A DNA stretch of 64,000 nucleotides, from assembly GCA_963706575.1 (NCBI GenBank), contig CAVPNL010000001.1:384001-448000 (forward strand), read 5' to 3'. The stretch is from an uncultured delta proteobacterium. GTDB taxonomy: Bacteria; Desulfobacterota; Desulfobacteria; Desulfobacterales; JAHEIW01. This document shows positions 1,626-17,183 of this stretch, in pieces. Position 1 is the stretch's first letter; each line of letters opens with the position of its first letter. The notes under the pieces are model-generated. The model was not told where the DNA came from. It worked only from the letters and a program-made list of their open reading frames with translations, and searched no databases. The translations under genes and the position numbers were made by a program.

Positions 1626-3086
1626 TTATGCCCTTTTTTCAGTCCCATAGCGGTATCGCAGATCATCGGTCATCACGCAGCGTCGAATCTGGGTAAATAT
1701 TCTGGGCCGGGTGTGTCCTTCGCCATTGGTGGCGATATGAAATGAAACAAATCCTTCACCGGTAACGCCAACGCCGCCGAGGCCGCAGGCCCCATTTTTA
1801 ACAAATGAGGCACAGCGCGCTTTGCTGGCCATTTTCTGGATGTTGGTAATGCTGTTGGAATGGATGGCCATGGTGTGGCCCATATTTTGCTCGGCGGCCA
1901 ATGCCCATTCGATGGCCTGATCGACATTCGCACAACGGACCAGTGGCAGGACCGGCATAATCTGTTCGGTCCAAACCAGGGGATGATTTTGGTCGGTTTC
2001 CAGAATGACGATTTGGGCATCGTTTCCCACTTCCAGGCCGATGGAGTTGAGTATGAATCCCGGCGTTTTGCCGATAAAGTCCATATTAATAACGCCCGGT
2101 TCAGCCGGTCCTTTGACTTCCTTGAAGATATGTTTGAGCAGCTTTTTGCCCTGATCCGCAGAAATTTCGTAGGCGCCGTATTTTTTTAGATGTTCTTTAA
2201 GTTGTTCCGCCGCGGATTCAACGACAAAAATTTCCTTTTCACTGGCGCAGGCGGTACAATTTGAAAAGGAAGCGCCCTGGATAATGCATTTTGCTGCACG
2301 GTCCAGATCCGCTGTTTCGTCAACCACAACCGGAGGATTACCGGGCCCACCGGCGATAACGCGTTTGCCGGTTGAGGTCGCAAAGTCGACCACCCCATGG
2401 CCGCCGGTTACCGCAATCATGCCGACGTCTGGATGGGTCATCAGCTCTTGGGCGGAGGGCACCGTCGGTTCTTCCAGGCAGCAGATGCAATTTGGCGGTC
2501 CCCCGGCGTTTACGATGGCATGGTTCAGATCCCGAATGACGCGGGCGGATACCTTCTTAGTTTTGGGGTGAGGATTATCGATTACCGTGTTGCCGCCGGA
2601 CATCATCATAATGGCATTGAAAATTATGGTGGGAGCGCCGTTGGTGACCGGATTAACCGAGGCAATCACGCCGATCGGCAGTCGTTCTATAATGGTGACA
2701 CCCTTATCACCGGCATAGACCTCGGGAGTTAGATCCTCCATTCCCGGCACATTGCAGGCAGAGCGGACCTTGGCCACATTGTCGTCCGGTTTGCCCAGCC
2801 CGGTTTCTTCAAATTCCATGCGGCCGTATTCATCAGCATTGGCCAGACCGGTTTCGCGAATGGCCTGGATGAACCTCCGGCGGTCTTCAACCGGTGCATC
2901 CAACAGTTTTTTCTGAGCGCTGACAGCCGCATTTATGCAGGTTCCCATGTCCCGGAAAACGCCGTCGCCTGCAGCCGGCTTTTTTTTAGAGGGATTTTCC
3001 ATCTGATGGTCATCGATATTCTGCTCGGCAAGCTTTGCAATAACCTTTTCCACGATTTGGGTGACAACTTTTTCATCAAAATCCAT
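1626..3086 (-). CDS. eutE: BMC-associated CoA-acylating aldehyde dehydrogenase (EutE/PduP family) with N-terminal encapsulation peptide
   Basis: PIGVIASVNPVTN, GNTVIDNPHP, VTGGHGVV, AGGPGNPPVVVDETAD, catalytic C-A-S-E-K-E, EQIMPVLP, FVKNG, GEGFVSFHIA; N-terminus MDFDEKVVTQIVEKVIAKL is amphipathic. Confidence 0.9.
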   Translation of the reverse strand: MDFDEKVVTQIVEKVIAKLAEQNIDDHQMENPSKKKPAAGDGVFRDMGTCINAAVSAQKKLLDAPVEDRRRFIQAIRETGLANADEYGRMEFEETGLGKPDDNVAKVRSACNVPGMEDLTPEVYAGDKGVTIIERLPIGVIASVNPVTNGAPTIIFNAIMMMSGGNTVIDNPHPKTKKVSARVIRDLNHAIVNAGGPPNCICCLEEPTVPSAQELMTHPDVGMIAVTGGHGVVDFATSTGKRVIAGGPGNPPVVVDETADLDRAAKCIIQGASFSNCTACASEKEIFVVESAAEQLKEHLKKYGAYEISADQGKKLLKHIFKEVKGPAEPGVINMDFIGKTPGFILNSIGLEVGNDAQIVILETDQNHPLVWTEQIMPVLPLVRCANVDQAIEWALAAEQNMGHTMAIHSNSITNIQKMASKARCASFVKNGACGLGGVGVTGEGFVSFHIATNGEGHTRPRIFTQIRRCVMTDDLRYRYGTEKRA

Positions 3087-4087: not shown

Positions 4088-4708
4088 CTAGTGCTCACGC
4101 CCGGACAAGGCAGCCAGGGCTGACTCTGCCGCCAGTTTACCACTGAGGACATCCGATGGCTCACCGGCGAAGTAAACCCGGCCGCTGGCACCATATACCG
4201 TGACATGATTGAGGGTGATATTGGCTGCCTTTTCGGCTTCATTGGCAGCATATCCGGCATATCCGGCCGGGACGACTTCCAGAATATAAAGGGTTTCATC
4301 GCTTAGCGATAGACTGGCAGCCCGAAACCGGTTTACGATTTGGCTCATATGCGGATCGATTCGTTCGACGGTCTCGGTGGCTAGGATCTTGGGTTTAAGA
4401 CGGTCGGTTTCTTTGCAACCCAGATAATCCAGGATAACCTCGCCGGCCTGTTTCACATCGGCGGGCGAATCGGCGTGAACCTCCAGCATGCCATAGGTTC
4501 TTTCCACTACCAGCGCCCCGGGCCGCACATTGGACCTTTTCATGACCGCATCGGTGATTGAGTTAATCTCAATGCCCGGCGCGATTTCCACAAAAAGGGC
4601 AGCCTGACCGGTTATCGGATAATAGCCGCGTGAGGTCGAGCCGATATAACCGACCATCTGTTTTTGTAATTGATCGATGTAGGCAAATGCTCTAAGATCT
4701 ATCTTCAT
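4088..4708 (-). CDS. BMC shell protein, circularly permuted tandem domain (BMC-T dp, CcmP/CsoS1D-like)
   Basis: LRAFAYIDQLQKQ, ALFVEIAPGIEIN, VVERTYGMLEVH, LYILEVVPAGYAGYAANEAEKAA, GASGRVYFAG. Confidence 0.9.
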   Translation of the reverse strand: MKIDLRAFAYIDQLQKQMVGYIGSTSRGYYPITGQAALFVEIAPGIEINSITDAVMKRSNVRPGALVVERTYGMLEVHADSPADVKQAGEVILDYLGCKETDRLKPKILATETVERIDPHMSQIVNRFRAASLSLSDETLYILEVVPAGYAGYAANEAEKAANITLNHVTVYGASGRVYFAGEPSDVLSGKLAAESALAALSGREH

Positions 4709-4711
4709 AAT

Positions 4712-5917
4712 TTATATGCTCTTCAGCCATTCGCGTTTGTTCGGACAGACAGCCGTTATGGTGGTACAGGCTGCATTTCCCTGACAGGCGCACTCTTTGT
4801 CGCCGCCCTTGCTGAATCGGCCGTAACAGAAATCGGTAATGGGTATCGACGGTTGACAATCCATGATCAGTTGGCTGATCAGCCGGCCGATTACCGGGGC
4901 CAATCCGAAGCCGTGGCCGCTAAAGCCGGTGGCAAAAACAAAACCGGGGACTTCTTCTGCAAAGCCTAACACCGGCAGGGCGTCTGACATCTGGGCGATA
5001 AGGCCTGACCACATCCGAATCACGTTTAAATTCTTCAGTATCGGGAAATAATCAATAACCATCTCGGAAATCGCCGGCCCGATGAAATGAAACAGCGGCT
5101 TGCCTTCGCGATGGATGAATTGTTCGGTGCCGACAAATCCTCCCCAAAAGAAGGAACCGTGTCCGGTTTGCCGGCCGTAAAACAACCCTTTGGCATGTCC
5201 GACCATCTGCTGAAATAACGGAGGGTAGGGCTCAGTAATCAGGGCCTCGGAAAATACAGGTCGCATCGGCAAATCCAGGCCGGCCATGTTGGCCACTTTT
5301 CGTCCGGCTACACCGGCGGCATCCACCACCAGGTCAGTTTCAAAAATGTGCTTATCGGTTACCACACCGCTAATTTTACTTTTTTTTAGTCGAACCTCCA
5401 TGACTTCTTCATGCGTAAAAAACCGGGCCCCGAGATTCTTGGCCTTTTTAAAAAAGCCGTAAGTGACCAAAAACGGATTGACATGACCGTCCGTGGGGCA
5501 GAAACTGGCACCGAGAACCTTCTCTCCGATATGAGGATTAATTTCCAACACCTGTTTGCGATCCAGCATCGTCAGCTCGAGTCCAACAGTCTTTTGGTTT
5601 TCTACCGACTGACGCATGGTTTCCAGCTCTTCTTCTGAAGTGCAGAGCCGCAGATTGCCCGCCCTTACATATTCCACATCCATATCCAGTTCTTCATGGA
5701 GGTGGCCGTATATCTGTATGCTTTCCATGGCCAACGGCATTTCTTTAAGATTGCGTGCAGACTGGCGTACACCACCGCCATTGCTGCCAGATGCTTCTCC
5801 ACCGATGTCTGATTTTTCAATCACCACCGGTTTCAGGCCTTCTTTGGCCAGATTGTAAGCGATGGCGCAGCCCATCACGCCTCCGCCGATTATAACTGCA
5901 TCTGCTTTTTCAGGCAT
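4712..5917 (-). CDS. FAD-dependent amine oxidoreductase, sarcosine oxidase beta / MgdA / DadA-like catalytic subunit
   Basis: IIGGGVMG dinucleotide fold, ASGSNGGGVRQ, DGHVNP, RMWSG, ATGFSGHGFGLAPVIG; Cys-rich C-terminal tail. Confidence 0.85.
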   Translation of the reverse strand: MPEKADAVIIGGGVMGCAIAYNLAKEGLKPVVIEKSDIGGEASGSNGGGVRQSARNLKEMPLAMESIQIYGHLHEELDMDVEYVRAGNLRLCTSEEELETMRQSVENQKTVGLELTMLDRKQVLEINPHIGEKVLGASFCPTDGHVNPFLVTYGFFKKAKNLGARFFTHEEVMEVRLKKSKISGVVTDKHIFETDLVVDAAGVAGRKVANMAGLDLPMRPVFSEALITEPYPPLFQQMVGHAKGLFYGRQTGHGSFFWGGFVGTEQFIHREGKPLFHFIGPAISEMVIDYFPILKNLNVIRMWSGLIAQMSDALPVLGFAEEVPGFVFATGFSGHGFGLAPVIGRLISQLIMDCQPSIPITDFCYGRFSKGGDKECACQGNAACTTITAVCPNKREWLKSI

Positions 5918-6007
5918 CTGTTCTCCTGTTTGAAACGTCAGGAATTCAATATTCGCTATTCGTTATTCAAAATCTTTTAAAACAATTAAAGATGTGACAA
6001 TTAAAAA

Positions 6008-6688
6008 CTAGCTATTGGCAAATGCGGACAACCTCAGCGGCCGTACCGGCCCTCTGGCGGTTGTCGGCTCTATTTCGGCAAGGCTCAATCCCAATTCTTC
6101 AGCCAGGATCTGGCTTACAAGGCGCTGACAGGTTTGCCCCTGGCACAGCCCCATTCCGGCCCGGGTGATCCGTTTAATGCCGTTTAGGGTTTGCATGCCA
6201 TTGCGAATGGCGTCTTTAATTACGCCTTTGGTAATTTCTTCACAGCGGCATATGATCATATCATCGTCATCCGATGGGATTTGTCGGGATTCAGTCGATG
6301 TCTCCTTTTTACGATTCGGTTTATCCGGTTCACGCCCTTTCAGCTGTTTAATTCGTTCGACAACCCGATTGGCAAGGGCCTCGATGGCTTCTTCTGAGAA
6401 TTGGCCACCCGATATGCCCGGCGCATGGCTTTTCGATGGTCTGTTAGCAGAGGTAGGCCGGGTAGATCGGTGCATCTTTGCTTTTTTACCAGCCGGCTGT
6501 TTAGCCGGCTGAATTGCCGCAGTCAGCGATACGGCTCCTGGAGGCGTGGTTTTGATGTGGAGCTGATGTTCTTTAATCAAATCAGCGGCGGCGGCAGATA
6601 GAATTGCACCCTCGGGAACCTCAATTTCTTTGTTAGCGCCATCGATGATTTGTTTTACCTGCTGTGAGAATATGAATACACGGGCCAT
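6008..6688 (-). CDS. BFD-like [2Fe-2S] subunit of the dehydrogenase complex, fused to a BMC-type N-terminal domain and an internal encapsulation peptide
   Basis: C-terminal IICRCEEIT...KRITRAGMGLCQGQTC...RGPVRP (SoxA/HcnB/opine oxidase C-terminal module); internal FSEEAIEALANRVVERIKQLK helix between low-complexity linkers. Confidence 0.85.
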   Translation of the reverse strand: MARVFIFSQQVKQIIDGANKEIEVPEGAILSAAAADLIKEHQLHIKTTPPGAVSLTAAIQPAKQPAGKKAKMHRSTRPTSANRPSKSHAPGISGGQFSEEAIEALANRVVERIKQLKGREPDKPNRKKETSTESRQIPSDDDDMIICRCEEITKGVIKDAIRNGMQTLNGIKRITRAGMGLCQGQTCQRLVSQILAEELGLSLAEIEPTTARGPVRPLRLSAFANS

Positions 6689-6700
6689 TTAGTTCTCCCT

Positions 6701-7318
6701 TTATGGTGTTCGACCTTTTATCTTTCCAAGTGTTTCGACGACTTTTTGGGCTGCCGCCTGAATTTCCGACTCGGTGCCGGCCATATAGATGCGTCCGGAA
6801 GCCCCAAAAAAACGGATATCAACCAGCCGGACACCGCAATGCTTCTCAGCTTCATTGGCAGCGATGGATGAATAGGCCGCCGGTGTGACCTCCAGCAGAT
6901 AGACATCGTCACCGCCTAAAATCAACATTCCCTTGCTGTTGCGGTTGATAATCACCGCCTGGTATGGATCAATTTTATTGATGATGCTGGTTGCCAGAAC
7001 ACTGGGCGCCAGACGTTCTTCCTCTTTGAGCCCCAGCTCATCCAATATCATGCTGCCGGCATGCAGAACTTCTGCCTGTTCAAACGAGTGGATTTCCAGC
7101 ATGCCATAGCGTCTTTCAACAATCATTTCCCCGGGTTTTGAATTGGTGGCCTTGAGCGCAATATCCGACAAGCGGTTGATCTCGACGCCGGGGACGACCT
7201 CCACGAAAAGGGAAGCCATGCCCTCTACAGAAAGAAAACCTCGACAGGCGCTTGCAAACAAAGATGCAAACTGGGGTTGCAACCGATCCAGATAGCAATA
7301 GGCTCTGAGTTCAGCCAT
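6701..7318 (-). CDS. BMC shell protein, circularly permuted tandem domain (second BMC-T dp paralog)
   Basis: LRAYCYLDRLQPQFAS, SLFVEVVPGVEINR, IVERRYGMLEIHS, AANEAEK, GASGRIYMAG; collinear with 4088-4708. Confidence 0.9.
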   Translation of the reverse strand: MAELRAYCYLDRLQPQFASLFASACRGFLSVEGMASLFVEVVPGVEINRLSDIALKATNSKPGEMIVERRYGMLEIHSFEQAEVLHAGSMILDELGLKEEERLAPSVLATSIINKIDPYQAVIINRNSKGMLILGGDDVYLLEVTPAAYSSIAANEAEKHCGVRLVDIRFFGASGRIYMAGTESEIQAAAQKVVETLGKIKGRTP

Positions 7319-7360
7319 TCATTTGTCTCCTTGGTAGCAGTTTAATATCTCCATCTAATG

Positions 7361-7516
7361 TTGATAATCTCGTAAAAAGTTAGAAAAGCAGCTGTTTACG
7401 AGTGTGTTTTGTATTTGGTGTTTAGTGTTTAGTATTCTAACATGCCGATATAGCATCATCTATTTCATGCCAAACACCAAACACTTGATGAATTCGGCTT
7501 TTTACGAATTCATCAA
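7361..7516. repeat. REP/MITE-like element with terminal inverted repeats
   Basis: TTGATAATCTCGTAAAAAGT (7361-7380) and GCTTTTTACGAATTCATCAA (7497-7516) are imperfect reverse complements; inner arms TTTGGTGTTT / AAACACCAAA. Confidence 0.7.
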
Positions 7517-8349
7517 TGTTCAGTCTTAATAATTTGAATCGAATACTCCTTCGCTAAATCCCGGGCCAATGGTGTCACGATTCCCCCGGGTGCCAGCGTG
7601 ATTGCATTCTGGTTTTCAGCAACGGCCATATAAATTACTTTGGCTGTAACCAGTTTTATCGCACCGGTGCTATTTTCTGTTTGCGTTTTAATTGTTGCGG
7701 GTGAAGGGATGGGGACGGTTTTGGCTGGTTTAATACCGGATAACATTTTCTGAAATGTTGAATGTAATTGATCTGTTGGACAAAAAACCATCCCGAAGCT
7801 CTCAAGTTTTCTTAAAATTTGGTCGATTTCACTGCGCAGGGCTTCATTGGCAAGGATGTCACACACCAGAAATCCGTCGCTGGCAGCCAGAACCCGTTTG
7901 CCCTGCAGCAATGCGGTGAACACGATACCGGACTCTTGATCATCACAGATCAGGCTGGCGATTTTGGCGGCTGTTTTCAGACAGAAGGTGGGTAAAACCA
8001 GTATATCGGCCTTTTGCAAAGCCTTCTCCAACCCCGCCGGTTTGACCGTATCCAAAATACATTTGATGCCGGCGCCCTCTTTGACATCGGCGCCGCAAAC
8101 CCAGGAACGGGCAGATTCAACCGTATAGACGCTGGACCGGCGGGCGGTCTCTTCTATTTTTTGGATCTGTGCAAGTGCCTGATCCAATTTGCGGACACCG
8201 GCATGAAAAATATTTAATACCGCCGGCCCTTTGCCGGGGGAATCTACAGGTCGGGACGGCGGGTTGCGCGATGATCCTTTGGGCAAGCCGGTTTCGTTGA
8301 GAACCTGTCGAACGATTTTGCTGATTTCTTTTTTGAGCTTATCCGTCAT
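7513..8349 (-). CDS. BMC-associated flavoprotein-fold / PduM-like protein with N-terminal encapsulation peptide
   Basis: N-terminal MTDKLKKEISKIVRQVLNE; core ADILVLPTFCLKTAAKIASLICDD...ALLQGKRVLAASD; C-terminal KLVTAKVI...GIVTPLARDLAKEYSIQI domain typical of BMC accessory proteins. Confidence 0.7.
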   Translation of the reverse strand: MTDKLKKEISKIVRQVLNETGLPKGSSRNPPSRPVDSPGKGPAVLNIFHAGVRKLDQALAQIQKIEETARRSSVYTVESARSWVCGADVKEGAGIKCILDTVKPAGLEKALQKADILVLPTFCLKTAAKIASLICDDQESGIVFTALLQGKRVLAASDGFLVCDILANEALRSEIDQILRKLESFGMVFCPTDQLHSTFQKMLSGIKPAKTVPIPSPATIKTQTENSTGAIKLVTAKVIYMAVAENQNAITLAPGGIVTPLARDLAKEYSIQIIKTEH

Positions 8350-8388
8350 AATTTCCTTAAAATCTCCGGCAAACGGCTGCCGAATTCA

Positions 8389-9228
8389 TCACGCCTGCAT
8401 ATTGGCGGTCGCCGTATCCCGGCAGGATAACGCGATGCCGAAGGGGGTGATGAATTGAGGAATATGCGGCCGAAACGTTTCCATACCGATGTTTTCGGCG
8501 ACGATATCTGCAAAGCCCCGCAATTCACATGTTCCGCCCACCAGACAGACTTTTTCCAGATTATCGAATTCTGCTAAATAGGAAGCCGCGATACTGGCAA
8601 TTTTTTCGATAACCGGCTGAACGATTGCCAGAACTTCCCCGTTTTTCTGGGGATTCGTTTTTATTTTCTCAGCCTGTTCGTAGTTGATTTTTTGATTGCC
8701 CGCCAAAACGAGAGACAGATGAACACCTCCTGTGGCTTCGTCATTGGAATAAATGACTTCTCCATTTTTGATAACGGCAACTCCTGTTGTGCCGCCGCCC
8801 ACATCGACAATGGCCCCGTTTTCGATTTTAAGGACCTGATTGGCGGCTGTGGGCTCATCCAAGACATTGAGCACTTCCAAACCGACCCCCTCCAGGATAT
8901 GGGTGGTGGTTCTAAGGTTGGCGGATTCGGTCTGCGGCGGGTAGGATGTCGCGCCTCTTTCGATCGGCACAGGGCTGTGCTTTCTGATTTCTTCCATCAG
9001 CTCGCGGACGGTGTTCAAGGCCCCGACATAATCGACAATCATACCGCTGCGGGCGACTTCGGTCCGGCGCATGTTGGCCGCCCGCGGCGTGCCGGTTTCA
9101 TCGATAATGATGGCGATGGTTTTATAGGTTCCCACATCAACACCGGCATATAACTGCTCGGCACCGGCAAAATTCCAGTTGTCCGGCCGGTTTACAAGTT
9201 GGCTGAGCATGTTGATCGCATCCGTCAT
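8389..9228 (-). CDS. eutJ: EutJ (actin/Hsp70-like ATPase of BMC loci)
   Basis: GVDVGT, ATSYPP, VLDEPTAA, IVDVGGGTTG, DEATGGVHLSLVLAG, LVGGTC, ITPFGIA. Confidence 0.92.
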   Translation of the reverse strand: MTDAINMLSQLVNRPDNWNFAGAEQLYAGVDVGTYKTIAIIIDETGTPRAANMRRTEVARSGMIVDYVGALNTVRELMEEIRKHSPVPIERGATSYPPQTESANLRTTTHILEGVGLEVLNVLDEPTAANQVLKIENGAIVDVGGGTTGVAVIKNGEVIYSNDEATGGVHLSLVLAGNQKINYEQAEKIKTNPQKNGEVLAIVQPVIEKIASIAASYLAEFDNLEKVCLVGGTCELRGFADIVAENIGMETFRPHIPQFITPFGIALSCRDTATANMQA

Positions 9229-9779
9229 AAAATACTCCTGGAAATTTCATCAGTGGGCGAGGGGATTACCACATGGCTCAAAACCAACCCGGTGCCTTCC
9301 AGAATATCAATGCCGGCTTCTACCGCCGCCTCTACCGAATCCACACTGCCGGTTAAATATAAAAATGACTTTCCGCCCAGGCCGGTGGCGCAACGTATTT
9401 CAATGATTTCGACATTCGCCGCTTTAACTCCGGCATCGGCGGCCATAATCGAAGAGGCCACCGAGAATGTTTCAATAATTCCCAGTGAATCGACGCGTTT
9501 AATCCTGGTGGTCGCGGTGATGGCTGCAAATATGGAAGCATGCACATTGGGAATCACGAAATCATCTACCAGAAATTCCCCGGCCACCGCCTTGCCCACT
9601 TCATTTGCGCGTTCGATAGAGTCCACATCGCCGGAAACCATCACCATGTATTTTCCGGCGCAAATGGGTTGGGCGAAAACCAGCTCGACATCGGCCGCTT
9701 TCAGCATTTCATCGCCGGCCGCCACGCCCTTGGCGATACTGTTCAGTTCGATCATGGCAATTGCTTTGAGCTCTTCCAT
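9225..9779 (-). CDS. pduT: BMC-T shell protein PduT-like (Fe-S binding)
   Basis: IELNSIAKGVAAGDEMLKAA, PICAGKY (PduT pore cysteine motif), LGIIETFS, AADAGVKAA, GLGGK; adjacent to pduS. Confidence 0.9.
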   Translation of the reverse strand: MEELKAIAMIELNSIAKGVAAGDEMLKAADVELVFAQPICAGKYMVMVSGDVDSIERANEVGKAVAGEFLVDDFVIPNVHASIFAAITATTRIKRVDSLGIIETFSVASSIMAADAGVKAANVEIIEIRCATGLGGKSFLYLTGSVDSVEAAVEAGIDILEGTGLVLSHVVIPSPTDEISRSIL

Positions 9780-9791
9780 TTTTTATATCCG

Positions 9792-11129
9792 TCAGCGGGA
9801 TTGGATTACAATTTGTTTATCATCGACAGCTGATACGGTTCCATCGATACTGGCATGCACCCTGGCACCCAGGGCGCCTTCGGGAATTTCGCCGAGCAGG
9901 TCACCTTTTTGTACACGATCACCTTCGGCGACGACAGGAAGCGCGGGTTCTCCAAGATGCTGGTTTAAAAGAATTTTAACCTGTCTGATCTTGATTTCAT
10001 CTGGAAAAAACGCCGGATGGGTATCATATTTCATGACTTCCAGACGCTCCATCAGTCTTCGAAGAGGCACCTTACGGTTGTCGAAAAACGGCGACACCCG
10101 GTATGTTTCACGTTTGGCCTCGCGTTTAACGCCTTCTGCCAGGCATTTTTGCTTCAACACCGCGTTGATTTCCCGGGGCGAGAGCATCATGGGGCAGGCG
10201 AATTTTTCGCAAACGCCGCATTCCGAACAAATCAAAGCATCTTCCAGAATTTCTCCGTTCATTCCGGGCTTATACGCCAGGTGTCGCATGATCTTATGGG
10301 GCTCAAGCGAGTGCCCGATTAAATTGCGCGGGCAAAGATCCGTGCAGCGGGAGCACTGGGTACAGGCGGACTTGGCGATAAAGCGCATGCGTTCAATGTC
10401 TTTTTGTTTATCTCTGATGATATTGTGCTCCGGCGGCAATACAATAATGCCGCTCGTTGTTTTGGTTACCGGTTCCTGCTCACCAGTGAGCACCTTGCCC
10501 ATCATGGGGCCGCCCCTCACGATTCCATAATCGGGGATAAGGGAACCGCCGGCCAGCTGGATGACCTCGTCGACAGGTGTACCGATGGGCACCTTGCAGA
10601 CCATCGGGGTGCGAACCTCTCCGCAAACCGTTAGAAAGCGTTCGGTTACCGGCTGCTGCGTCATGGCGTGCGAGACATTTAACAGAGATTCAACATTGCA
10701 AACCACTGCCAGAACATTCAGCGGGATACCGCCCTCTGGGACAACGTGGCCGATGACTTCATTGACTAAAATAAACTCATCACCTGCCGGGTAATAGTCA
10801 TCCAGTTCATAAACATCGATATGAGGGGCGTAACCGTTGCCGGCAATTTTACTTTTAAGGATTTCAAGGGCCCGCTGGTGTTTTGACTTAACGCAAACCG
10901 TGCCTTTACCGGCATTGGTGCAATCCATTACGGTGCTCAGACCGTTTAAAATGAGATCGGTGTGATGTTCGAGCAGATGCGGATCACTTACGAGCAGCGG
11001 CTCACAGGAGGCTCCGTTTGCCAGTACCTGTTCGACTTCAAACTGCAGCTTCACGTGCGTCGGAAATCCGGCGCCCCCAGCACCAACAACACCGGCAGCC
11101 CGGATCTTATCGACAATATCTGCTCTCAT
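9792..11129 (-). CDS. pduS: PduS / RnfC-like flavo-iron-sulfur protein
   Basis: AGVVGAGGAGFPTHVK, CEPLL, YPAGDE, GGPMMG, CTQCSRCTDLCP and CSECGVCEKFACP 4Fe-4S motifs, QHLGEP...GARVHASIDG. Confidence 0.92.
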   Translation of the reverse strand: MRADIVDKIRAAGVVGAGGAGFPTHVKLQFEVEQVLANGASCEPLLVSDPHLLEHHTDLILNGLSTVMDCTNAGKGTVCVKSKHQRALEILKSKIAGNGYAPHIDVYELDDYYPAGDEFILVNEVIGHVVPEGGIPLNVLAVVCNVESLLNVSHAMTQQPVTERFLTVCGEVRTPMVCKVPIGTPVDEVIQLAGGSLIPDYGIVRGGPMMGKVLTGEQEPVTKTTSGIIVLPPEHNIIRDKQKDIERMRFIAKSACTQCSRCTDLCPRNLIGHSLEPHKIMRHLAYKPGMNGEILEDALICSECGVCEKFACPMMLSPREINAVLKQKCLAEGVKREAKRETYRVSPFFDNRKVPLRRLMERLEVMKYDTHPAFFPDEIKIRQVKILLNQHLGEPALPVVAEGDRVQKGDLLGEIPEGALGARVHASIDGTVSAVDDKQIVIQSR

Positions 11130-11419
11130 TTTTTCTTCACAGGCGCGTCGTCGACCAGTTCTAGATTATCAGCAATACCGATAACGACTGCGTCTATCGG
11201 GATCGGTGTCCCCTTGTTTAGTGCTTGCATGGCCGGTGCACCCCGGGTGACAATTACCATTTCACCGAATCCGGCGCCGACTTCATCGGCAGCAACCAGG
11301 ACGTTGCCGGCCGGTTTGAGGTCCTTTCCCAGAGGCTGGATGAACAATAGCCGTAACGCGGATATCGTATCCAGCTTCTTGGTGGACCAAACGTTTCCGA
11401 TAACTTTAGCAAGTAACAT
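11126..11419 (-). CDS. eutN: BMC vertex pentamer protein (EutN/CcmL family)
   Basis: MLLAKVIGNVWSTKK...VAADEVGAGFGEMVIVTRG...PIDAVVIGIAD. Confidence 0.95.
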   Translation of the reverse strand: MLLAKVIGNVWSTKKLDTISALRLLFIQPLGKDLKPAGNVLVAADEVGAGFGEMVIVTRGAPAMQALNKGTPIPIDAVVIGIADNLELVDDAPVKKK

Positions 11420-11469
11420 TCTGATGACCCTCCAGCCTCCGAGTAAACATTAACTTTCGATCGGGATTT

Positions 11470-11781
11470 CTATTTAAGATGTTCGGCTTCCTCGATGGCT
11501 TTAAGGCTGGCTTTGACATCAGCGATATCGCCAAAAATTCCGATCATGGTTACATGCTGCGGGCAAATCCCCTTCAGGTCGAAAACACGCACCGAAGCCG
11601 CTTTTTCGGCAACATCAGCGGCTGCGATCATGTCGACCACTTTTCCCTGAATGAGTCCAACAGCTGAATAAGGGACCTCAGCCTCGGATAAGATTTTTTT
11701 CCCGACGGCACCAACACGCTGTCTGAGAAATTCAAAGACTCCCGGGGAAGGATGGGAAATTAAATGGGTACTAAATGCCAT
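11470..11781 (-). CDS. grpU: Divergent BMC hexamer, GrpU-like (GxCPQ Fe-S motif)
   Basis: Likely start ATG 11781 after GAGAGG RBS; ISHPSPG...AVGLIQGKVVDMIAAADVAEKAA...KGICPQHVTMIGIFGD. Confidence 0.8.
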   Translation of the reverse strand: MAFSTHLISHPSPGVFEFLRQRVGAVGKKILSEAEVPYSAVGLIQGKVVDMIAAADVAEKAASVRVFDLKGICPQHVTMIGIFGDIADVKASLKAIEEAEHLK

Positions 11782-12024
11782 GATAGACCTCTCAGCATTC
11801 TGTTTTTTGCGAATCGTAAGCTGCGCTGCGGCGCTAAAATTATTGAATTCACCTTTTGATTCGGCATTTTCAGTGCTATTGATGACATGCGCTGATTTCA
11901 GCCGATTGCATGCAGACAAACTCCGGCCGATCTGGTCACTGGCCACGACACATTATTTTTCACGGCGTCACCGACCAAGCCGCACGCGCTTGCAGACCAA
12001 TCCGCTTCAGAACTTCCCGGAAAA

Positions 12025-12306
12025 TTATTCTTCGGCTTTCGGAATGGTATACTCGATGTCGCTGTGCGGTCTGGGGATAACGTGCACCGAAACCAGTTCG
12101 CCGACACGTTCGGCCGCTGCGCCACCGGCATCCGTGGCCGCCTTGACGGCACCGACGTCGCCGCGCACAAACACGGCAACCAGACCGCCGCCGACAAACT
12201 CTCTACCGACAAATCGTACTTTCGCTGCTTTTACCATTGCATCGGCGGCCTCAATCGCGCCGGCCAGACCTTTGGTTTCCACCATACCTAATGCTTGTTC
12301 AGCCAT
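12025..12306 (-). CDS. Major BMC hexamer shell protein (PduA/EutM-like)
   Basis: [24 protein letters not shown]...[23 protein letters not shown]...HVIPRPH; RBS CAGGAGG. Confidence 0.97.
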
Positions 12307-12330: not shown

Positions 12331-12834
12331 TTAGCGTTTCAATCGAATTGCGCGGGCCGTCATAGACCAGTCTCTGGGGATTTCTATGATAACCGTTGCG
12401 GTTTGATCCATTTTTTTCGTTTGTTTGACTGCGGTAACGACCGCTTCTCCTAATTCCTGCCCTGCTCTATCCAGGGCGATCACGGTTTCTCCTTTTTCCG
12501 GCAAGGGCCGATATTCATAAGGCATCTCGAGCGCCGCCATATTATCCGGCAGGCTTTCATCGACAATAAAGATGGCCTGGCCGGGGCAGATGGGCAAACA
12601 GCTGCGGCAGCCCACACAGTTATCTTCCGTTAGCACGGGAGGGGTGGTGATATCCTCACCGACGGTAATGGCATCATATTTACAGCTGGCTTCACAGGGA
12701 TTGCACGGAATGTCTTCCAGACATTCGAGCACGGCCACCGCACCCATGCGGCGCCGCGTCTCCGACGGTATGCCTTTGCCGTTTTTTAGTTCTTTTTGCG
12801 AAAGGAATCCGGTTTTGGTTGAATCAGCGGCCAT
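12331..12834 (-). CDS. 2x[4Fe-4S] ferredoxin-like subunit of the dehydrogenase complex
   Basis: ECLEDIPCNPCEASC and CVGCRSCLPICPGQAI; MPYEYRPLP...LDRAG resembles the ferredoxin partner of sarcosine/proline dehydrogenase-like clusters. Confidence 0.85.
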   Translation of the reverse strand: MAADSTKTGFLSQKELKNGKGIPSETRRRMGAVAVLECLEDIPCNPCEASCKYDAITVGEDITTPPVLTEDNCVGCRSCLPICPGQAIFIVDESLPDNMAALEMPYEYRPLPEKGETVIALDRAGQELGEAVVTAVKQTKKMDQTATVIIEIPRDWSMTARAIRLKR

Positions 12835-13928
12835 TATGCTTGCGCTTTCATTGTGTCATTCAGGTATTGCTTGGCTTTGCCCCTGGCTTCTCCATGGCTG
12901 CCGCTGCGCAAACCGACCATGCTTTTAAGTTGCACTTCGCGCTGCTTTAAAAACTCAGGCTCATCCAGATAACCGAGTCTGCAGGCAATTGCCAGTCCGG
13001 CGATACGGCCTTCGATAATTGCCGTGCTGGCCTCTTCAATGCCGGATGCATCACCGGCCACGTAAACGCCATTAACAGATGTTTCCTGGTTCAGGTTATG
13101 TGACGGTACCTTGCCGCCTAGCACCGGAGAGTCGACGATCTGGCAGCCGGTCATTCTGAGCAACTGGTTCATGGGGTTGAGGCCGACGGCGATACATACC
13201 GTATCGACATCGAATTGTTTCTCCGTACCGTGTATCGGTTTCCAATTTTCATCCACTTCAATTATCGTGGCGCCCTCAACCCGTTCTGTGCCATGCGCTG
13301 CCTTAATCGTGTGTGACATAAAAAAAGGGACTCCGGTCCGGGCGATCTTGGCAGCGTGCACAGCGTAACCGCCGATTTCGGGTGCGGCATCGATAACGGC
13401 TGCAACCTGGCAGCCGGCTTGCAGCATCTGGTAGCTGACAATGACACCGACATTGCCCGATCCCACCATAAGAATGGCTTTGCCCGGTCGGATGCCATGG
13501 ATATTGGCCATGGTCTGAGCGGCGCCGGCGCCGATGACCCCCGGCAGGGTCCAGCCGGGGAAGGGGATCATGTTCTCTGATGCGCCGGTGGCCACCAGGG
13601 TACACTGGGCCTTTACGTGCTCAATGCGATCCCGGATCAGGACGTTGAGGGCGCCGTTTTCGTAGATACCTAAAACCACTGAATTCAAAGAAACTTCAAC
13701 GTTCAGTTCCCGGGCGTCGCTCAGGAAACTGTTGCCAATATCAAATCCGCGTTCCTTGGCGTGGTGCTCCTGGGAGCCGAAAAACTTGTGGATCTGTTTG
13801 AAAAGCTGACCGCCGGGGCGGTCGTTTTCATCATAGACGACAACCTCAACGCCGTATTTAGCAGCTTCGACGGCGGCTGCCAGTCCGGCGGGACCGGCGC
13901 CGACGCATACCATTTCACATCTTCTCAC
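12834..13928 (-). CDS. FAD/NAD(P)-binding oxidoreductase, sarcosine oxidase alpha N-terminal / HcnB-like subunit
   Basis: VGAGPAGLAAA, DENDRPGGQLFKQIHKFFG, ATGASE...FPGWTLPGV.GAGAAQ, GSGNVG, VYVAGDASGIEEA; no GcvT-like C-terminal domain. Confidence 0.88.
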   Translation of the reverse strand: MRRCEMVCVGAGPAGLAAAVEAAKYGVEVVVYDENDRPGGQLFKQIHKFFGSQEHHAKERGFDIGNSFLSDARELNVEVSLNSVVLGIYENGALNVLIRDRIEHVKAQCTLVATGASENMIPFPGWTLPGVIGAGAAQTMANIHGIRPGKAILMVGSGNVGVIVSYQMLQAGCQVAAVIDAAPEIGGYAVHAAKIARTGVPFFMSHTIKAAHGTERVEGATIIEVDENWKPIHGTEKQFDVDTVCIAVGLNPMNQLLRMTGCQIVDSPVLGGKVPSHNLNQETSVNGVYVAGDASGIEEASTAIIEGRIAGLAIACRLGYLDEPEFLKQREVQLKSMVGLRSGSHGEARGKAKQYLNDTMKAQA

Positions 13929-14248
13929 GGCTTGCCTCGTGATAAATCCGGCCCGTTGCCATGTTGCGTTTCAACCACCATGCCTTCTCTTAGCGGTTCG
14001 ATACACGTTCGAATATTGGGTATGCCGTCCACCACCATGATACAATCGGTGCAACGGCCAATGGCACAAAACACGCCCCGGGGCTCATTTCGTTTGGTGG
14101 TGTAACGGTGGATCAGCACCCCGTTGCTTCGCAGCGCAATCGCAATCGGTTCGCCGGCAAAACCTTCCATGGTTTTGCCGTCAAAGGTGAAGCGGACCTT
14201 GGGACCTTTTTCGAACACTCCCAGAATCGGATGTTCTTCAATGCGCAT
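13925..14248 (-). CDS. [2Fe-2S] subunit (Fer2_4, HcnA / sarcosine oxidase alpha N-terminus-like)
   Basis: MRIEEHPILG...FTFDGK...GEPIAIAL...PRGVFCAIGRCTDCIMVVDGIPNIRTC. Confidence 0.88.
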   Translation of the reverse strand: MRIEEHPILGVFEKGPKVRFTFDGKTMEGFAGEPIAIALRSNGVLIHRYTTKRNEPRGVFCAIGRCTDCIMVVDGIPNIRTCIEPLREGMVVETQHGNGPDLSRGKP

Positions 14249-14283
14249 TATCAAGAATCCAATAAAAATTTATATTCATCCGA

Positions 14284-15594: not shown

Positions 15595-16295
15595 TATTCC
15601 TGAGCCCTTTGTTTATGGGTTGGTTTAAAAAGGACGTATTCGTGGCGGCCATAAATTTTTGGAACAATGCTTTGAAACTCGTTGACATCCTGATCGATCC
15701 CGTATTTTTGAAACAGGGGCTTTAGCACCTTTTTTTCTTTTGGATCGATGGGAACGATGCGGACGTTGCCGCCCAGCTTTTTTTCGACCGCAGGATCCAT
15801 CACATGAATAACGCCGTCATACATGGATTCCCCGATACCTTCGCCGACTTCTCCTAAAACAACGATTCGGCCGCCGAGCGTCATCTTTCCGGTCCAGCGT
15901 CCGACACTGCCGCAGACAATCAGGGTGCCGCCTTTCATGCCCCAGCCGGCTCGGCTGCCGCTGTTGCCCTTGATCACCACAGTGCCGCCGACCATCGAAG
16001 GCGCCGCATTGCTGCCGGTGTTCATTTCGACGATGATTTCGCCGGCCGTCATGTTGTCGCCCGTATACCAGCCGGTATTTCCCTCCACCACAATGGTCGG
16101 CCCTTCAAGAAATCCGCCCGTGTAAAATCCGGTGCTGCCGTGAACGGTAATCGTTCCCTTTCCGATCAAGGCCGTGGCGAAGTTGTGCATGGAATGGGGG
16201 TTGTCAATTTCAATTTGGTCTTCGGTTTTAATCAATTCCTTAAGCTTGCGATTGACTTCTCGGGAGCTCATTTTTTTTAAATCTAAACGGACCAT
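15594..16295 (-). CDS. mgsB: GXGXG beta-helix protein, N-methylglutamate synthase subunit B (MgsB/GlxC-like)
   Basis: Likely start MVRLDLKKMSSREVN, overlapping the mgsA stop; repeated G-x-x-G-x-x-x-G rungs (GSTGFYTGG, GNTGWYTG, GNSGSRAG, GEVGEGIGESMY). Confidence 0.8.
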   Translation of the reverse strand: MVRLDLKKMSSREVNRKLKELIKTEDQIEIDNPHSMHNFATALIGKGTITVHGSTGFYTGGFLEGPTIVVEGNTGWYTGDNMTAGEIIVEMNTGSNAAPSMVGGTVVIKGNSGSRAGWGMKGGTLIVCGSVGRWTGKMTLGGRIVVLGEVGEGIGESMYDGVIHVMDPAVEKKLGGNVRIVPIDPKEKKVLKPLFQKYGIDQDVNEFQSIVPKIYGRHEYVLFKPTHKQRAQE

Positions 16296-17183
16296 ACCTG
16301 CACGCCTCCTGGATCCATCTCCGTTGCATAAACATCGGAGACAATTGGGGTTAAACAAATTTGCTCAGACCCAAAGAGCACGGTGGCATCACCTTTTTCA
16401 AAATACAACATCGGCTTTATGCCCAGCCGATCTCTCAAGGCACCCAGCTGATTCTCCGTGCTGACAAGCAAGGTGAAGACACCGTCGAATGTATCCAATC
16501 CCAGGTTAAGGGCCTGTTCCAGATCCAATCCTTTTTCCTTCATGTGATAGGCAATGAAATGGGCGGCCATTTCCGAGTCATTGTTGGTTTTGAAGCGGAT
16601 CCCCCAGTTTTGCATTTTGCGGCGCATGTTGAAGTAATTGGTGAATTGTCCGTTGTGCACAATTGCCAGCTCCGGATAAAGGTAGGACACAAAGGGATGG
16701 GCAAAATTGATGTTTTCCACGCTTTCGGTGGCCAGGCGTACATGGCCGATTCCGTGGCTGCCTTTGACTTCCGGAATTTTGTGGCATTGCCGCAATTCTT
16801 CAGCGGAGCCCTCATCCTTGTATATCTTGATGCGTTTACCGATGGAGTGGACACACAGATTTGGATGCGAATCAATTGCCCAATTCAAATCGCTGATTTT
16901 ATGCCGGATCCATATCGATGGACGCCTCGTAAAAGGTGAAAATGCCCTGTCCCTGATAGATCCGGTAATCAGACGGCGTGCCGAATTTTTGAATAATTTC
17001 TTCAAGCGCCTGCTGATAACTTGCCTCCGTCAGGGAAACGCGCAGGTCGATGGTGTCGCGGTTTTCGTAAATGGCCACGCCGGTGGCATCTTTGCCCCGG
17101 TGGATGAGCTCATTTAGCATGTTAATCAGATCATTGCCCAGGGTAGGGGAGTCTTTGGTAATAATGCCTGCAATTCCACACAC
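16283..17183 (-). CDS. mgsA: Class II (Ntn) glutamine amidotransferase, N-methylglutamate synthase subunit A (MgsA/GlxB-like); 1-nt frameshift at ~16901
   Basis: GTG start MCGIAG (N-terminal Cys), HRGKDATG; continues in another frame with GIGHVRLATES, AHPF, VHNGQFTNY, NDSE, RDRLGIKP. Removing one base gives ~299 aa. Confidence 0.8.

Follow-up and report, generated by a model that had tools for sequence, protein, structure and literature searches.

A putative two-part microcompartment-association extension on the [2Fe-2S] subunit of an amine dehydrogenase in a MIC6 locus

Which enzyme is enclosed by the bacterial microcompartment (BMC) of type MIC6? In the accessible part of the BMC catalog, MIC2-7 are among the types without an obvious signature enzyme ('metabolosomes with incomplete core', PMC8217296). 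The question is raised by a 64,000-nucleotide stretch from an uncultured delta proteobacterium (contig CAVPNL010000001.1 of assembly GCA_963706575.1; this whole stretch is referred to as the window), in which BMC shell genes are found among those of a flavin- and iron-sulfur-containing amine dehydrogenase. The gene at 6008..6688 encodes the [2Fe-2S] subunit of this enzyme (protein P0001), which carries a 139-residue N-terminal extension. A sequence-only reading had interpreted the extension as an encapsulation peptide (EP) grafted onto the subunit, and the dehydrogenase as shell cargo. Our analysis supports the cargo interpretation and refines it on two points: the helix in question is EP-like but internal, and the small N-terminal domain was under-read. 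This domain is a recurrent BMC-association domain, which is the main addition to the first reading. Because MIC6 has no assigned signature enzyme, an extension on a dehydrogenase subunit is a pointer to the function of this compartment. We consider it probable, with some room for doubt, that the extension is a two-part BMC-association device that recruits the five-subunit dehydrogenase into MIC6.

Anatomy and distribution of the extension

The open reading frame (ORF) at 6008..6688 is real and lies on the minus strand, which the sequence-only reading left unstated. Its product consists of five parts: a folded 47-aa module, a first linker, an amphipathic helix, a second linker, and a domain with BFD/[2Fe-2S] and A3 elements. 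The motifs previously quoted are all present (CRC at residues 147-149, CQGQTC at 182-187, RGPVRP at 212-217 and the small-domain string at 23-43), and the helix lies where it had been placed. Pfam identified Fer2_BFD at residues 145-197 (E 1.4e-14) and SO_alpha_A3 at 150-224 (E 1.6e-11), and both pass the curated thresholds (54.6 bits for PF04324, cut-off 26; 44.8 bits for PF17806, cut-off 23.1). No Pfam family was identified in residues 1-144.

A homolog search with P0001 returned 773 proteins, of which the best 120 span its full length with identities of 53-94%. All family members (121/121) contain both the small domain and the helix. Majority-residue conservation over these 121 sequences is 0.79 in the module, 0.39 in linker 1, 0.80 in the helix, 0.44 in linker 2 and 0.88 in the Fe-S part, and both linkers of the family are rich in A/S/P/K/T. 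Cys147, Cys149, Cys182 and Cys187 are invariant in the alignment. AlphaFold2, run with a 19-sequence alignment, predicts that residues 1-50 are folded (predicted local distance difference test (pLDDT) 79-89), that residues 54-96 and 118-151 are disordered (pLDDT <50), and that an isolated helix occurs at residues 99-116.

The extension co-occurs strictly with shell genes. A scan using one genome per species yielded 80 loci, for which up to 10 kb of DNA was fetched per side. The match covers the full P0001 length in 17, all from Desulfobacterota-type metagenome-assembled genomes, and shell genes occur in the same synteny as in the window in every one of these (17/17). The remaining 63 loci, from Bacillota, Spirochaetota and a few other groups, match residues ~137-225 only, so that the Fe-S part (residues 140-226) is the sole segment shared with non-BMC homologs. 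All 63 encode an extension-less Fe-S subunit of ~100-110 aa that starts ~20 residues before the acidic patch/CRC, within a contiguous gene order of Fer2_4, Pyr_redox_2(+Fer4), Fe-S subunit and DAO. No shell or BMC accessory proteins were identified in these 63 loci within the DNA fetched. Thus, the expectation of the sequence-only reading that non-BMC homologs lack the extension holds throughout. Long Fe-S ORFs in L045, L070, L053, L056, L067 and L074 were considered as extensions and rejected as artefacts of first-start ORF calling; they overlap the upstream gene in another frame.

We also surveyed an even sample of 301 genomes of the phylum, with PF00936 as the shell-gene marker. The family profile matched in 35 genomes and the extended form was found in four (G000, G199, G258 and G260), all four with PF00936 matches at a distance of 2.4-5.4 kb on its contig. 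No extended form was identified in the 284 genomes lacking PF00936, where its presence would, as the sequence-only reading had stated, have contradicted that interpretation, or in the 13 genomes with a BMC of another type.

In a phylogeny of the Fe-S domain, one long branch with full support separates the 17 extended forms from the other sequences, except that two Bacillota sequences without the extension (L036 and L049), themselves on long branches, group with them. These are the only non-BMC loci with separate Pyr_redox_2 and 4Fe-4S ferredoxin genes, as in MIC6, and possibly encode the closest relatives of the MIC6 enzyme outside BMC loci.

The N-terminal module and the internal helix

The sequence-only reading noted a resemblance between the small domain and the C-terminus of the TIGR02536/PduM-like protein encoded nearby (unk278), and profile comparison bears this out (hhalign probability 91.9%, E 6.9e-7 over 41 columns; BLASTP 11/27 identities, E 0.005). 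A plain hidden Markov model of residues 1-50 gave no match to this C-terminus at E<=10. Residues 1-50 alone match the C-terminal positions 164-206 of NCBIfam TIGR02536 (E 0.0016). The copy in unk278 matches the PduM C-terminus (1.3e-4), TIGR02536 (0.001) and positions 3-48 of EutQ (0.009). The copies in the Fe-S subunit, in unk278 and in NifX-like proteins (L009, L014) align nearly gap-free. Pfam gave no family for residues 1-50 at E<=10, and no curated family for a module common to the EutQ N-terminus and the C-termini of PduM and TIGR02536 proteins was found in Pfam or NCBIfam.

The module is widespread on BMC proteins. A profile search of 1.84 billion cluster representatives identified 756 proteins at E<=0.001, and 145 of the 150 best matches were scanned for other domains (excluded were three very long multi-stretch proteins, the 36-aa P0235, and P0051). 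TIGR02536 was found in 89 of the 145, EutQ in 39 by the NCBIfam model and the EutQ cupin in 17 by Pfam, Nitro_FeMo-Co in nine, PduM in six, BFD/A3 in six, RpiB in five (Pfam LacAB_rpiB; four by NCBIfam) and EutT in four. An enoyl-CoA hydratase, a PduO-type adenosyltransferase and a BMC-P protein are single carriers among the 145, and the Fer2_2 protein P0140 also bears the module. It lies at the extreme N-terminus in EutQ-like, EutT/PduO-like, hydratase and NifX-like proteins, and at the C-terminus in PduM- and TIGR02536-sized proteins. Two PduM-sized proteins, P0130 (163 aa) and P0243 (162 aa), have an EP-like helix at the N-terminus followed by two module copies, and one copy in P0243 matches positions 5-60 of the Salmonella-type EutQ model (E 8.5e-8). 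PduM-like linkers thus seem to share both building elements with the P0001 extension.

In the 301-genome sample, the module was identified in nine genomes, all of them among the 17 with shell genes (PF00936); the 284 genomes lacking a PF00936 match gave no hit. All 14 module matches are on contigs with BMC-domain matches, and these include non-MIC6 loci. The window's own genome has only two copies, both in this locus.

Modelled alone, the module is predicted with a pLDDT of 74.7, and a Foldseek search of the PDB with this model gave no match at E<=0.001. A fold search with the whole-protein model returned only noise for residues 1-60 (Z about 4). The second helix of the module has a motif, T-P-[LA]-A-R-D-L-A-x-E-x-G-I (e.g., at 7522-7659 on the minus strand and in P0130 at residues 144-162), that gives weak Pfam E3_binding matches (best 1.8e-5, in 3 of the 145 proteins). 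E3_binding is the peripheral subunit-binding domain of 2-oxoacid dehydrogenase E2. The sequence thus hints that part of the module may resemble a known small protein-docking domain.

Published work on EutQ and PduM, as far as the text of these papers is accessible, indicates what the module may do. Residues 9-41 of EutQ (H1/H2) bind the shell at the EutL/EutM interface, and a flexible region then leads to H3/H4, which bind the EPs of EutC and EutE (PMC12487888). EutM pull-down is lost once the first 100 residues of EutQ are removed (Held 2016, PMC4827028). In PduM, residues 1-23 are a signal sequence, the protein helps to join core and shell, and a weak compartment association remains without the signal sequence (mSphere 2025, PMC12108088). 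PduM is said there to have no known homologs outside Pdu compartments (mSphere 2025, PMC12108088). In the text accessible, PduM is not mentioned in the EutQ paper (PMC12487888) and occurs once in Held 2016, in the reference list (PMC4827028). No description of a shared EutQ/PduM/TIGR02536 module was found in the open-access literature. By analogy, the module would bind shell proteins in MIC6, and its contribution to targeting is probably no smaller than that of the helix.

One small module therefore links PduM, the TIGR02536 proteins and the shell-binding end of EutQ, and several cargo enzymes carry it as well. A general role in shell docking, if confirmed, would account for the coupling of cargo to shell in BMC types without EutQ, and would offer engineers a second targeting tag besides EPs. 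We regard a further step as possible, if doubtful: that the module is a second, unnamed class of portable BMC-targeting signal, a small folded domain that docks on the shell in the manner of EutQ H1/H2 and recurs in many BMC types, on enzymes (RpiB, EutT, enoyl-CoA hydratase, Fe-S proteins) and on linker proteins (EutQ, PduM, TIGR02536). Together with the EP, it would here form a shell-to-core tether that places the [2Fe-2S] centre beside the Fe-S pore proteins of MIC6 for electron exit.

The second element of the extension is the helix at residues 97-117 (nucleotides 6338-6400; FSEEAIEALANRVVERIKQLK). As the sequence-only reading proposed, it is amphipathic and lies between linkers: its single apolar face consists of I102, L105, A106, V109, V110, I113 and L116 (spacing i, i+3, i+4, i+7, i+8, i+11, i+14), it is well conserved, and its flanks are poorly conserved and predicted to be disordered. 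R108 and R112 are invariant in the family and E103 is conserved at >=90%. The hydrophobic moment (0.50) is at the 97-98th percentile of 18-mers from the locus, below that of the N-terminal helix of unk278 (0.68) and above that of the aldehyde dehydrogenase N-terminal helix. These two are further helices of the classical EP kind in the locus, and an h-x-x-h-h-x-x-h-h spacing after acidic residues is common to all three. In rank order only, the top non-self match of the helix 97-117 profile is an aldehyde dehydrogenase EP, and non-self matches of the aldehyde dehydrogenase EP profile are mostly the helix of the Fe-S-subunit family, at the correct position. Divergent cluster representatives of the Fe-S subunit retain the hydrophobic pattern.

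EPs are described, in the accessible text of two papers, as predicted amphipathic helices of 15-20 aa, joined by a poorly conserved linker, restricted to BMC-associated homologs and terminal in position (PMC4594438; PMC12339742). The helix in P0001 is amphipathic. It is connected to the functional domain by a poorly conserved linker (0.44; helix 0.80, Fe-S domain 0.88). It is present on BMC-associated homologs and absent from non-BMC ones (17/17 loci compared with 0/63), with all extended forms from one lineage.

The MIC6 locus and its amine dehydrogenase

The minus-strand gene cluster (Table 1) begins with a glutamine synthetase (GS)-like ligase, followed by GATase, GXGXG and Glu_synthase genes (glutamate synthase (GOGAT)-like pieces) and by Fer2_4, Pyr_redox_2 and 4Fe-4S ferredoxin genes. 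Genes for BMC-H, a divergent BMC protein, BMC-P, PduS-like, PduT-like BMC-T and EutJ proteins and the TIGR02536/PduM-like protein of 278 aa come next, and then those for a CcmP-like BMC-T, P0001, the DAO flavoprotein, a second CcmP-like BMC-T, an RpiR regulator, an acylating aldehyde dehydrogenase and RidA. Shell and accessory genes are interleaved with dehydrogenase genes across 4088..12306. The EP-like helix of unk278 is at its N-terminus (nucleotides 8287-8349) and the module at its C-terminus (7522-7659), and the aldehyde dehydrogenase family retains an N-terminal helix and a variable linker.

Table 1. Coordinates of the features discussed (window positions unless a locus is named)
Feature	Position	Strand	Evidence
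Whole gene, 226-aa [2Fe-2S] subunit with putative N-terminal targeting extension (P0001)	6008..6688	minus	ORF list and translation, Pfam
Folded beta-alpha-beta-alpha-beta module of EutQ-N/PduM-C/TIGR02536-C type, residues 1-47	6548..6688	minus	pLDDT, hhalign, NCBIfam
Disordered linker 1, residues 48-96, A/S/P/K/T-rich	6401..6547	minus	conservation 0.39, length 36-47 aa (121 sequences), pLDDT <50
Amphipathic helix, EP-like but internal, residues 97-117	6338..6400	minus	AlphaFold2, conservation, hydrophobic moment
Linker 2, residues 118-139	6272..6337	minus	conservation 0.44; helix end to CRC motif 26-31 aa; pLDDT <50
Acidic DDD patch and BFD-like [2Fe-2S]/SoxA-A3 domain, residues 140-226	6011..6271	minus	Pfam, invariant Cys, 1y56_A match
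DAO-family beta subunit, 401 aa, with Cys-rich C-terminal tail (~4715-4813)	4712..5917	minus	Pfam DAO 8.7e-72
4Fe-4S ferredoxin subunit (167 aa)	12331-12834	minus	Pfam
Pyr_redox_2 subunit (362 aa)	12834-13928	minus	Pfam
Fer2_4 subunit	13925-14254	minus	Pfam
Acylating aldehyde dehydrogenase	1626..3086	minus	NCBIfam PRK15398, 525 bits
unk278, TIGR02536/PduM-like	7513..8349	minus	NCBIfam TIGR02536 7.8e-14, PduM 2.9e-4
CcmP-like BMC-T, two	6701-7318 and 4088-4708	minus	Pfam, NCBIfam
EutJ	8389-9228	minus	Pfam, NCBIfam
PduT-like	9225-9779	minus	Pfam, NCBIfam
PduS-like	9792-11129	minus	Pfam, NCBIfam
BMC-P	11126-11419	minus	Pfam, NCBIfam
BMC-H-like, divergent	11470-11946	minus	Pfam, NCBIfam
BMC-H, EutM-like	12025-12306	minus	Pfam, NCBIfam
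NifX-like module carriers in other MIC6 loci	L009:15722-16243, L014:16441-16980, G260:C7:18706-18846		

The dehydrogenase is of the PDH1/HcnABC/opine-oxidase type, with a DAO beta subunit encoded together with Fer2_4, Pyr_redox_2 and BFD/A3 proteins. The DAO subunit matches the beta chain of Pyrococcus horikoshii L-proline dehydrogenase (1y56_B) over its full length (E 3e-56), and P0001 residues 141-225 match residues 409-492 of the alpha chain (1y56_A; E 2.8e-11, fold search Z 6.3). The only matches in the fold search with the whole-protein model were 1Y56_A and Bfd, both for the Fe-S part. The Fer2_4, Pyr_redox_2 and Fe-S/A3 proteins are colinear with SoxA positions 13-100, 168-500 and 494-597 (NCBIfam), and the folate-binding part of SoxA was not found in the cluster by Pfam. 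In 61 of the 63 non-BMC loci, Pyr_redox_2 and Fer4 form a single gene of ~525 aa directly upstream of the Fe-S subunit gene. Because GS-like and/or GOGAT-like genes are directly upstream of the dehydrogenase in five non-BMC loci (L025, L037, L052, L072 and L080), the MIC6 locus looks like a GS/GOGAT-dehydrogenase operon that has received a shell module in its middle and an additional aldehyde dehydrogenase.

Only two dehydrogenase subunits differ from their non-BMC counterparts, the Fe-S subunit by its extension and the DAO subunit by its 4xCys tail. This tail of ~30 aa, with 3-6 Cys and a conserved C-P-N-K-R end, is present in all 14 of the BMC-locus copies. In non-BMC copies, the alignment stops at ~365-370 of the query, and in 44 of 58 the final 40 residues contain no Cys. 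The tail was already recorded in the catalog entry for MIC6, in the part accessible (PMC8217296). Among the sequence evidence, extension and tail together point most directly to the five-subunit amine dehydrogenase as MIC6 cargo. They also turn the function of MIC6 into a testable hypothesis, the oxidation of a probably glutamate-conjugated amine to an aldehyde inside the shell. By analogy with the enzymes of the N-methylglutamate pathway, the substrate would be a glutamate-conjugated amine from which free aldehyde is released. Searches of the open-access literature gave no match for MIC6 microcompartments, no paper that joins the N-methylglutamate pathway with microcompartments, and nothing that combines BMC, EP, glutamate synthase and Desulfobacter.

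The locus is the orphan BMC type MIC6 of Sutter 2021. The entry, as accessible, describes three loci of anaerobic Deltaproteobacteria with an aldehyde dehydrogenase bearing an N-terminal EP, a pfam04324 [2Fe-2S] protein and a pfam01266 protein with a 4xCys tail, and a shell of two CcmP-clade BMC-T, PduT- and GrpU-type proteins, BMC-P and two BMC-H (Sutter 2021, PMC8217296, Supplementary file 4). In the window we identified the aldehyde dehydrogenase EP, pfam04324, pfam01266 with its 4xCys tail, two CcmP-clade BMC-T, a PduT-type BMC-T and BMC-P. The accessible catalog text differs in that it mentions neither an extension or EP on the pfam04324 protein, nor Fer2_4 or Pyr_redox_2 subunits, nor GS/GOGAT-like genes. 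It lists two BMC-H, whereas the window encodes one canonical BMC-H and one divergent BMC protein. An extra BMC-domain gene (113-145 aa) lies between the CcmP-like and Fe-S subunit genes in 12 of the 17 related loci (L001-L006, L008-L011, L014 and L017). It is missing from L012, L013, L015, L016 and the window (6689-6700), and this leaves the window with one canonical BMC-H where the catalog has two.

The divergent BMC ORF encodes 158 aa; its relatives have 100-126 aa, and an internal Met at residue 56 lies before the conserved part. The ORF is probably over-extended. We take its product to be, probably, the GrpU-type Fe-S shell protein, from a Cys-Pro-Gln motif near the predicted pore. In some MIC6 loci, a NifX-like (Nitro_FeMo-Co) protein with an N-terminal module is encoded downstream of RidA. 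No counterpart was seen in the window, where the gap at 707-1144 contains no minus-strand ORF of at least 60 aa. A gene for a class-II amidotransferase (MgsA-like; 16283-17183, minus strand) is split by a frameshift near 16898-16910. Residues 1-91 of the intact homolog in L015 (299 aa) correspond to 17183-16911 in one frame and residues 96-299 to 16897-16286 in another, and the gene is either a pseudogene or an assembly error.

Proposed recruitment, alternatives and known systems

The five subunits (Fer2_4, Pyr_redox_2, 4Fe-4S ferredoxin, [2Fe-2S]/A3 and DAO) would form a PDH1/HcnABC-like complex in which the DAO and Pyr_redox_2 subunits provide the docking site for the Fe-S/A3 domain; the counterpart of this domain in 1Y56 is the C-terminal end of the alpha chain. 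The 47-aa module, by homology with EutQ H1/H2, would bind shell proteins. The helix may act as an EP, either joining the cargo core formed with the EP-bearing aldehyde dehydrogenase and the PduM/TIGR02536-like protein, or touching the shell. The other dehydrogenase subunits would enter by piggy-backing, as proposed for EutBC and PduCDE. As the signature enzyme of MIC6, the dehydrogenase would release an aldehyde within the compartment, where the acylating aldehyde dehydrogenase is also enclosed and would take it up.

Several points weigh against this proposal. The targeting function of the P0001 extension is predicted from sequence. The non-BMC loci were seen to at most 10 kb per side, with at least 15 kb in 39 of the 63 and less in 24. 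As all extended forms are on one side of a single long branch, a single evolutionary event may account for the association of the extension with shell genes, and independent support beyond one lineage comes from the module, not from the helix. The link of the module to EutQ is modest (E 0.009 directly, 8.5e-8 via P0243), and AlphaFold2 predicts a beta-alpha-beta-alpha-beta arrangement, whereas H1/H2 of EutQ are described as helices in the accessible text (PMC12487888). The helix is at the 97-98th percentile only, and since several ordinary helices of the locus equal or exceed it, amphipathicity alone is little proof of an EP. Profile searches among the three EP-like helices of the locus gave no significant match (best E 0.5-1.5). 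A cluster representative of 183 aa, P0132, has the module and linker and lacks the helix, which could reflect either a genuine deletion or an error of assembly. The helix is also preceded by 96 residues (folded module and linker), so a terminal position is not found. Because published EPs are terminal, it may best be described as EP-like rather than a textbook EP. The earlier identification as an EP thus stands for three of the four features listed above and fails on position.

Some of these points would equally suit a different explanation, in which the module alone targets P0001 and the helix serves a different purpose, for example in oligomerisation of the subunit or in contacts to a further part of the dehydrogenase. 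The presence of the module on many BMC proteins, shell binding by the matching region of EutQ, and its retention without the helix in P0132 are consistent with this, as are the internal position, unlike that of defined EPs, and the insignificant profile scores between helix and EPs. We nevertheless consider it unlikely. The helix is as conserved as the module in 121/121 sequences, with disordered linkers on either side. The 63 extension-less homologs all lack it, and their enzyme can presumably assemble nonetheless. It has the hydrophobic pattern of the aldehyde dehydrogenase and unk278 N-terminal helices, and an EP-like helix is paired with the module in PduM-like proteins too. A precedent for an internal EP was suggested in the accessible catalog supplement for the RpiB-DERA fusions of SPU3 (PMC8217296).

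The location of the extension on the Fe-S subunit, not on the catalytic DAO subunit, raises the question of whether it is mainly an electron-transfer docking arm. Such an arm would hold the [2Fe-2S] centre at the PduT- or GrpU-type pore proteins or at the PduS-like protein so that electrons can exit, with encapsulation secondary. The locus has PduS-like and PduT-like genes, the catalog expects two pore Fe-S shell proteins, the module is also on Fe-S or cofactor proteins (Fer2_2 in P0140, and NifX-like), and the DAO 4xCys tail is found in BMC loci only. However, the module is also present on EutQ, RpiB, enoyl-CoA hydratase and adenosyltransferase, enzymes without a redox centre, and the EutQ region binds EutM/EutL, not Fe-S shell proteins, in the accessible description (PMC12487888). 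Contact with the PduT-like and GrpU-like proteins is a supposition, and we judge this explanation to be quite unlikely. It is highly improbable that the extension is unrelated to the BMC and offsets the splitting of dehydrogenase genes by helping the subunits to meet. Pyr_redox_2 (362 aa) and Fer4 (167 aa) are indeed separate in BMC loci and fused in 61/63 non-BMC loci. Yet L036 and L049, the nearest non-BMC relatives on the tree (on a long branch), have the same split and extension-less Fe-S subunits of 102 and 94 aa, which speaks against compensation for the split. The confinement of the module to BMC loci in the 301-genome sample, on unrelated proteins, also argues against it. Recruitment of the dehydrogenase by module and helix together is the explanation that we prefer.

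The proposed two-part extension has parallels in known systems, compared here with the accessible text of the papers cited. The EPs of EutC and PduD (PMC4594438) likewise consist of a conserved amphipathic helix and a variable linker, are present in BMC homologs only, and are carried by one small subunit. Unlike these, the P0001 helix lies within the chain, flanked by two linkers and preceded by a folded module, and its carrier is an Fe-S electron-transfer subunit of a flavoenzyme whose targeting is a prediction. The N-terminal region of Salmonella EutQ is also similar, with a module of ~45 aa, a flexible stretch and a further helical element (PMC12487888; PMC4827028). The second element of EutQ binds EPs, whereas that of P0001 resembles one. 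The catalytic domain is a cupin in EutQ and [2Fe-2S]/A3 in P0001, and the sequence link between the two proteins is weak to moderate. The core-shell linkers of the PduM/TIGR02536 type, to which the neighbouring unk278 belongs, combine an EP-like helix with the module, as does the P0001 extension, and TIGR02536 proteins with an N-terminal EP are noted for SPU4 in the accessible catalog text (PMC8217296). The order is module then helix in P0001 and the reverse in PduM/TIGR02536-like proteins, and the pair is fused to an enzyme subunit in P0001 and part of a free-standing structural protein in the others.

For the enzyme itself, the closest comparison is the L-proline dehydrogenase of P. horikoshii (1Y56), in which the C-terminal domain of the alpha chain corresponds to the Fe-S part of P0001 and chain B to the DAO subunit. 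SoxA, HcnB and subunit A of opine oxidase also contain a segment matching this domain. In contrast to 1Y56, the Fe-S domain of P0001 is on a separate polypeptide, has four conserved Cys and, in BMC loci, carries the 139-residue extension.

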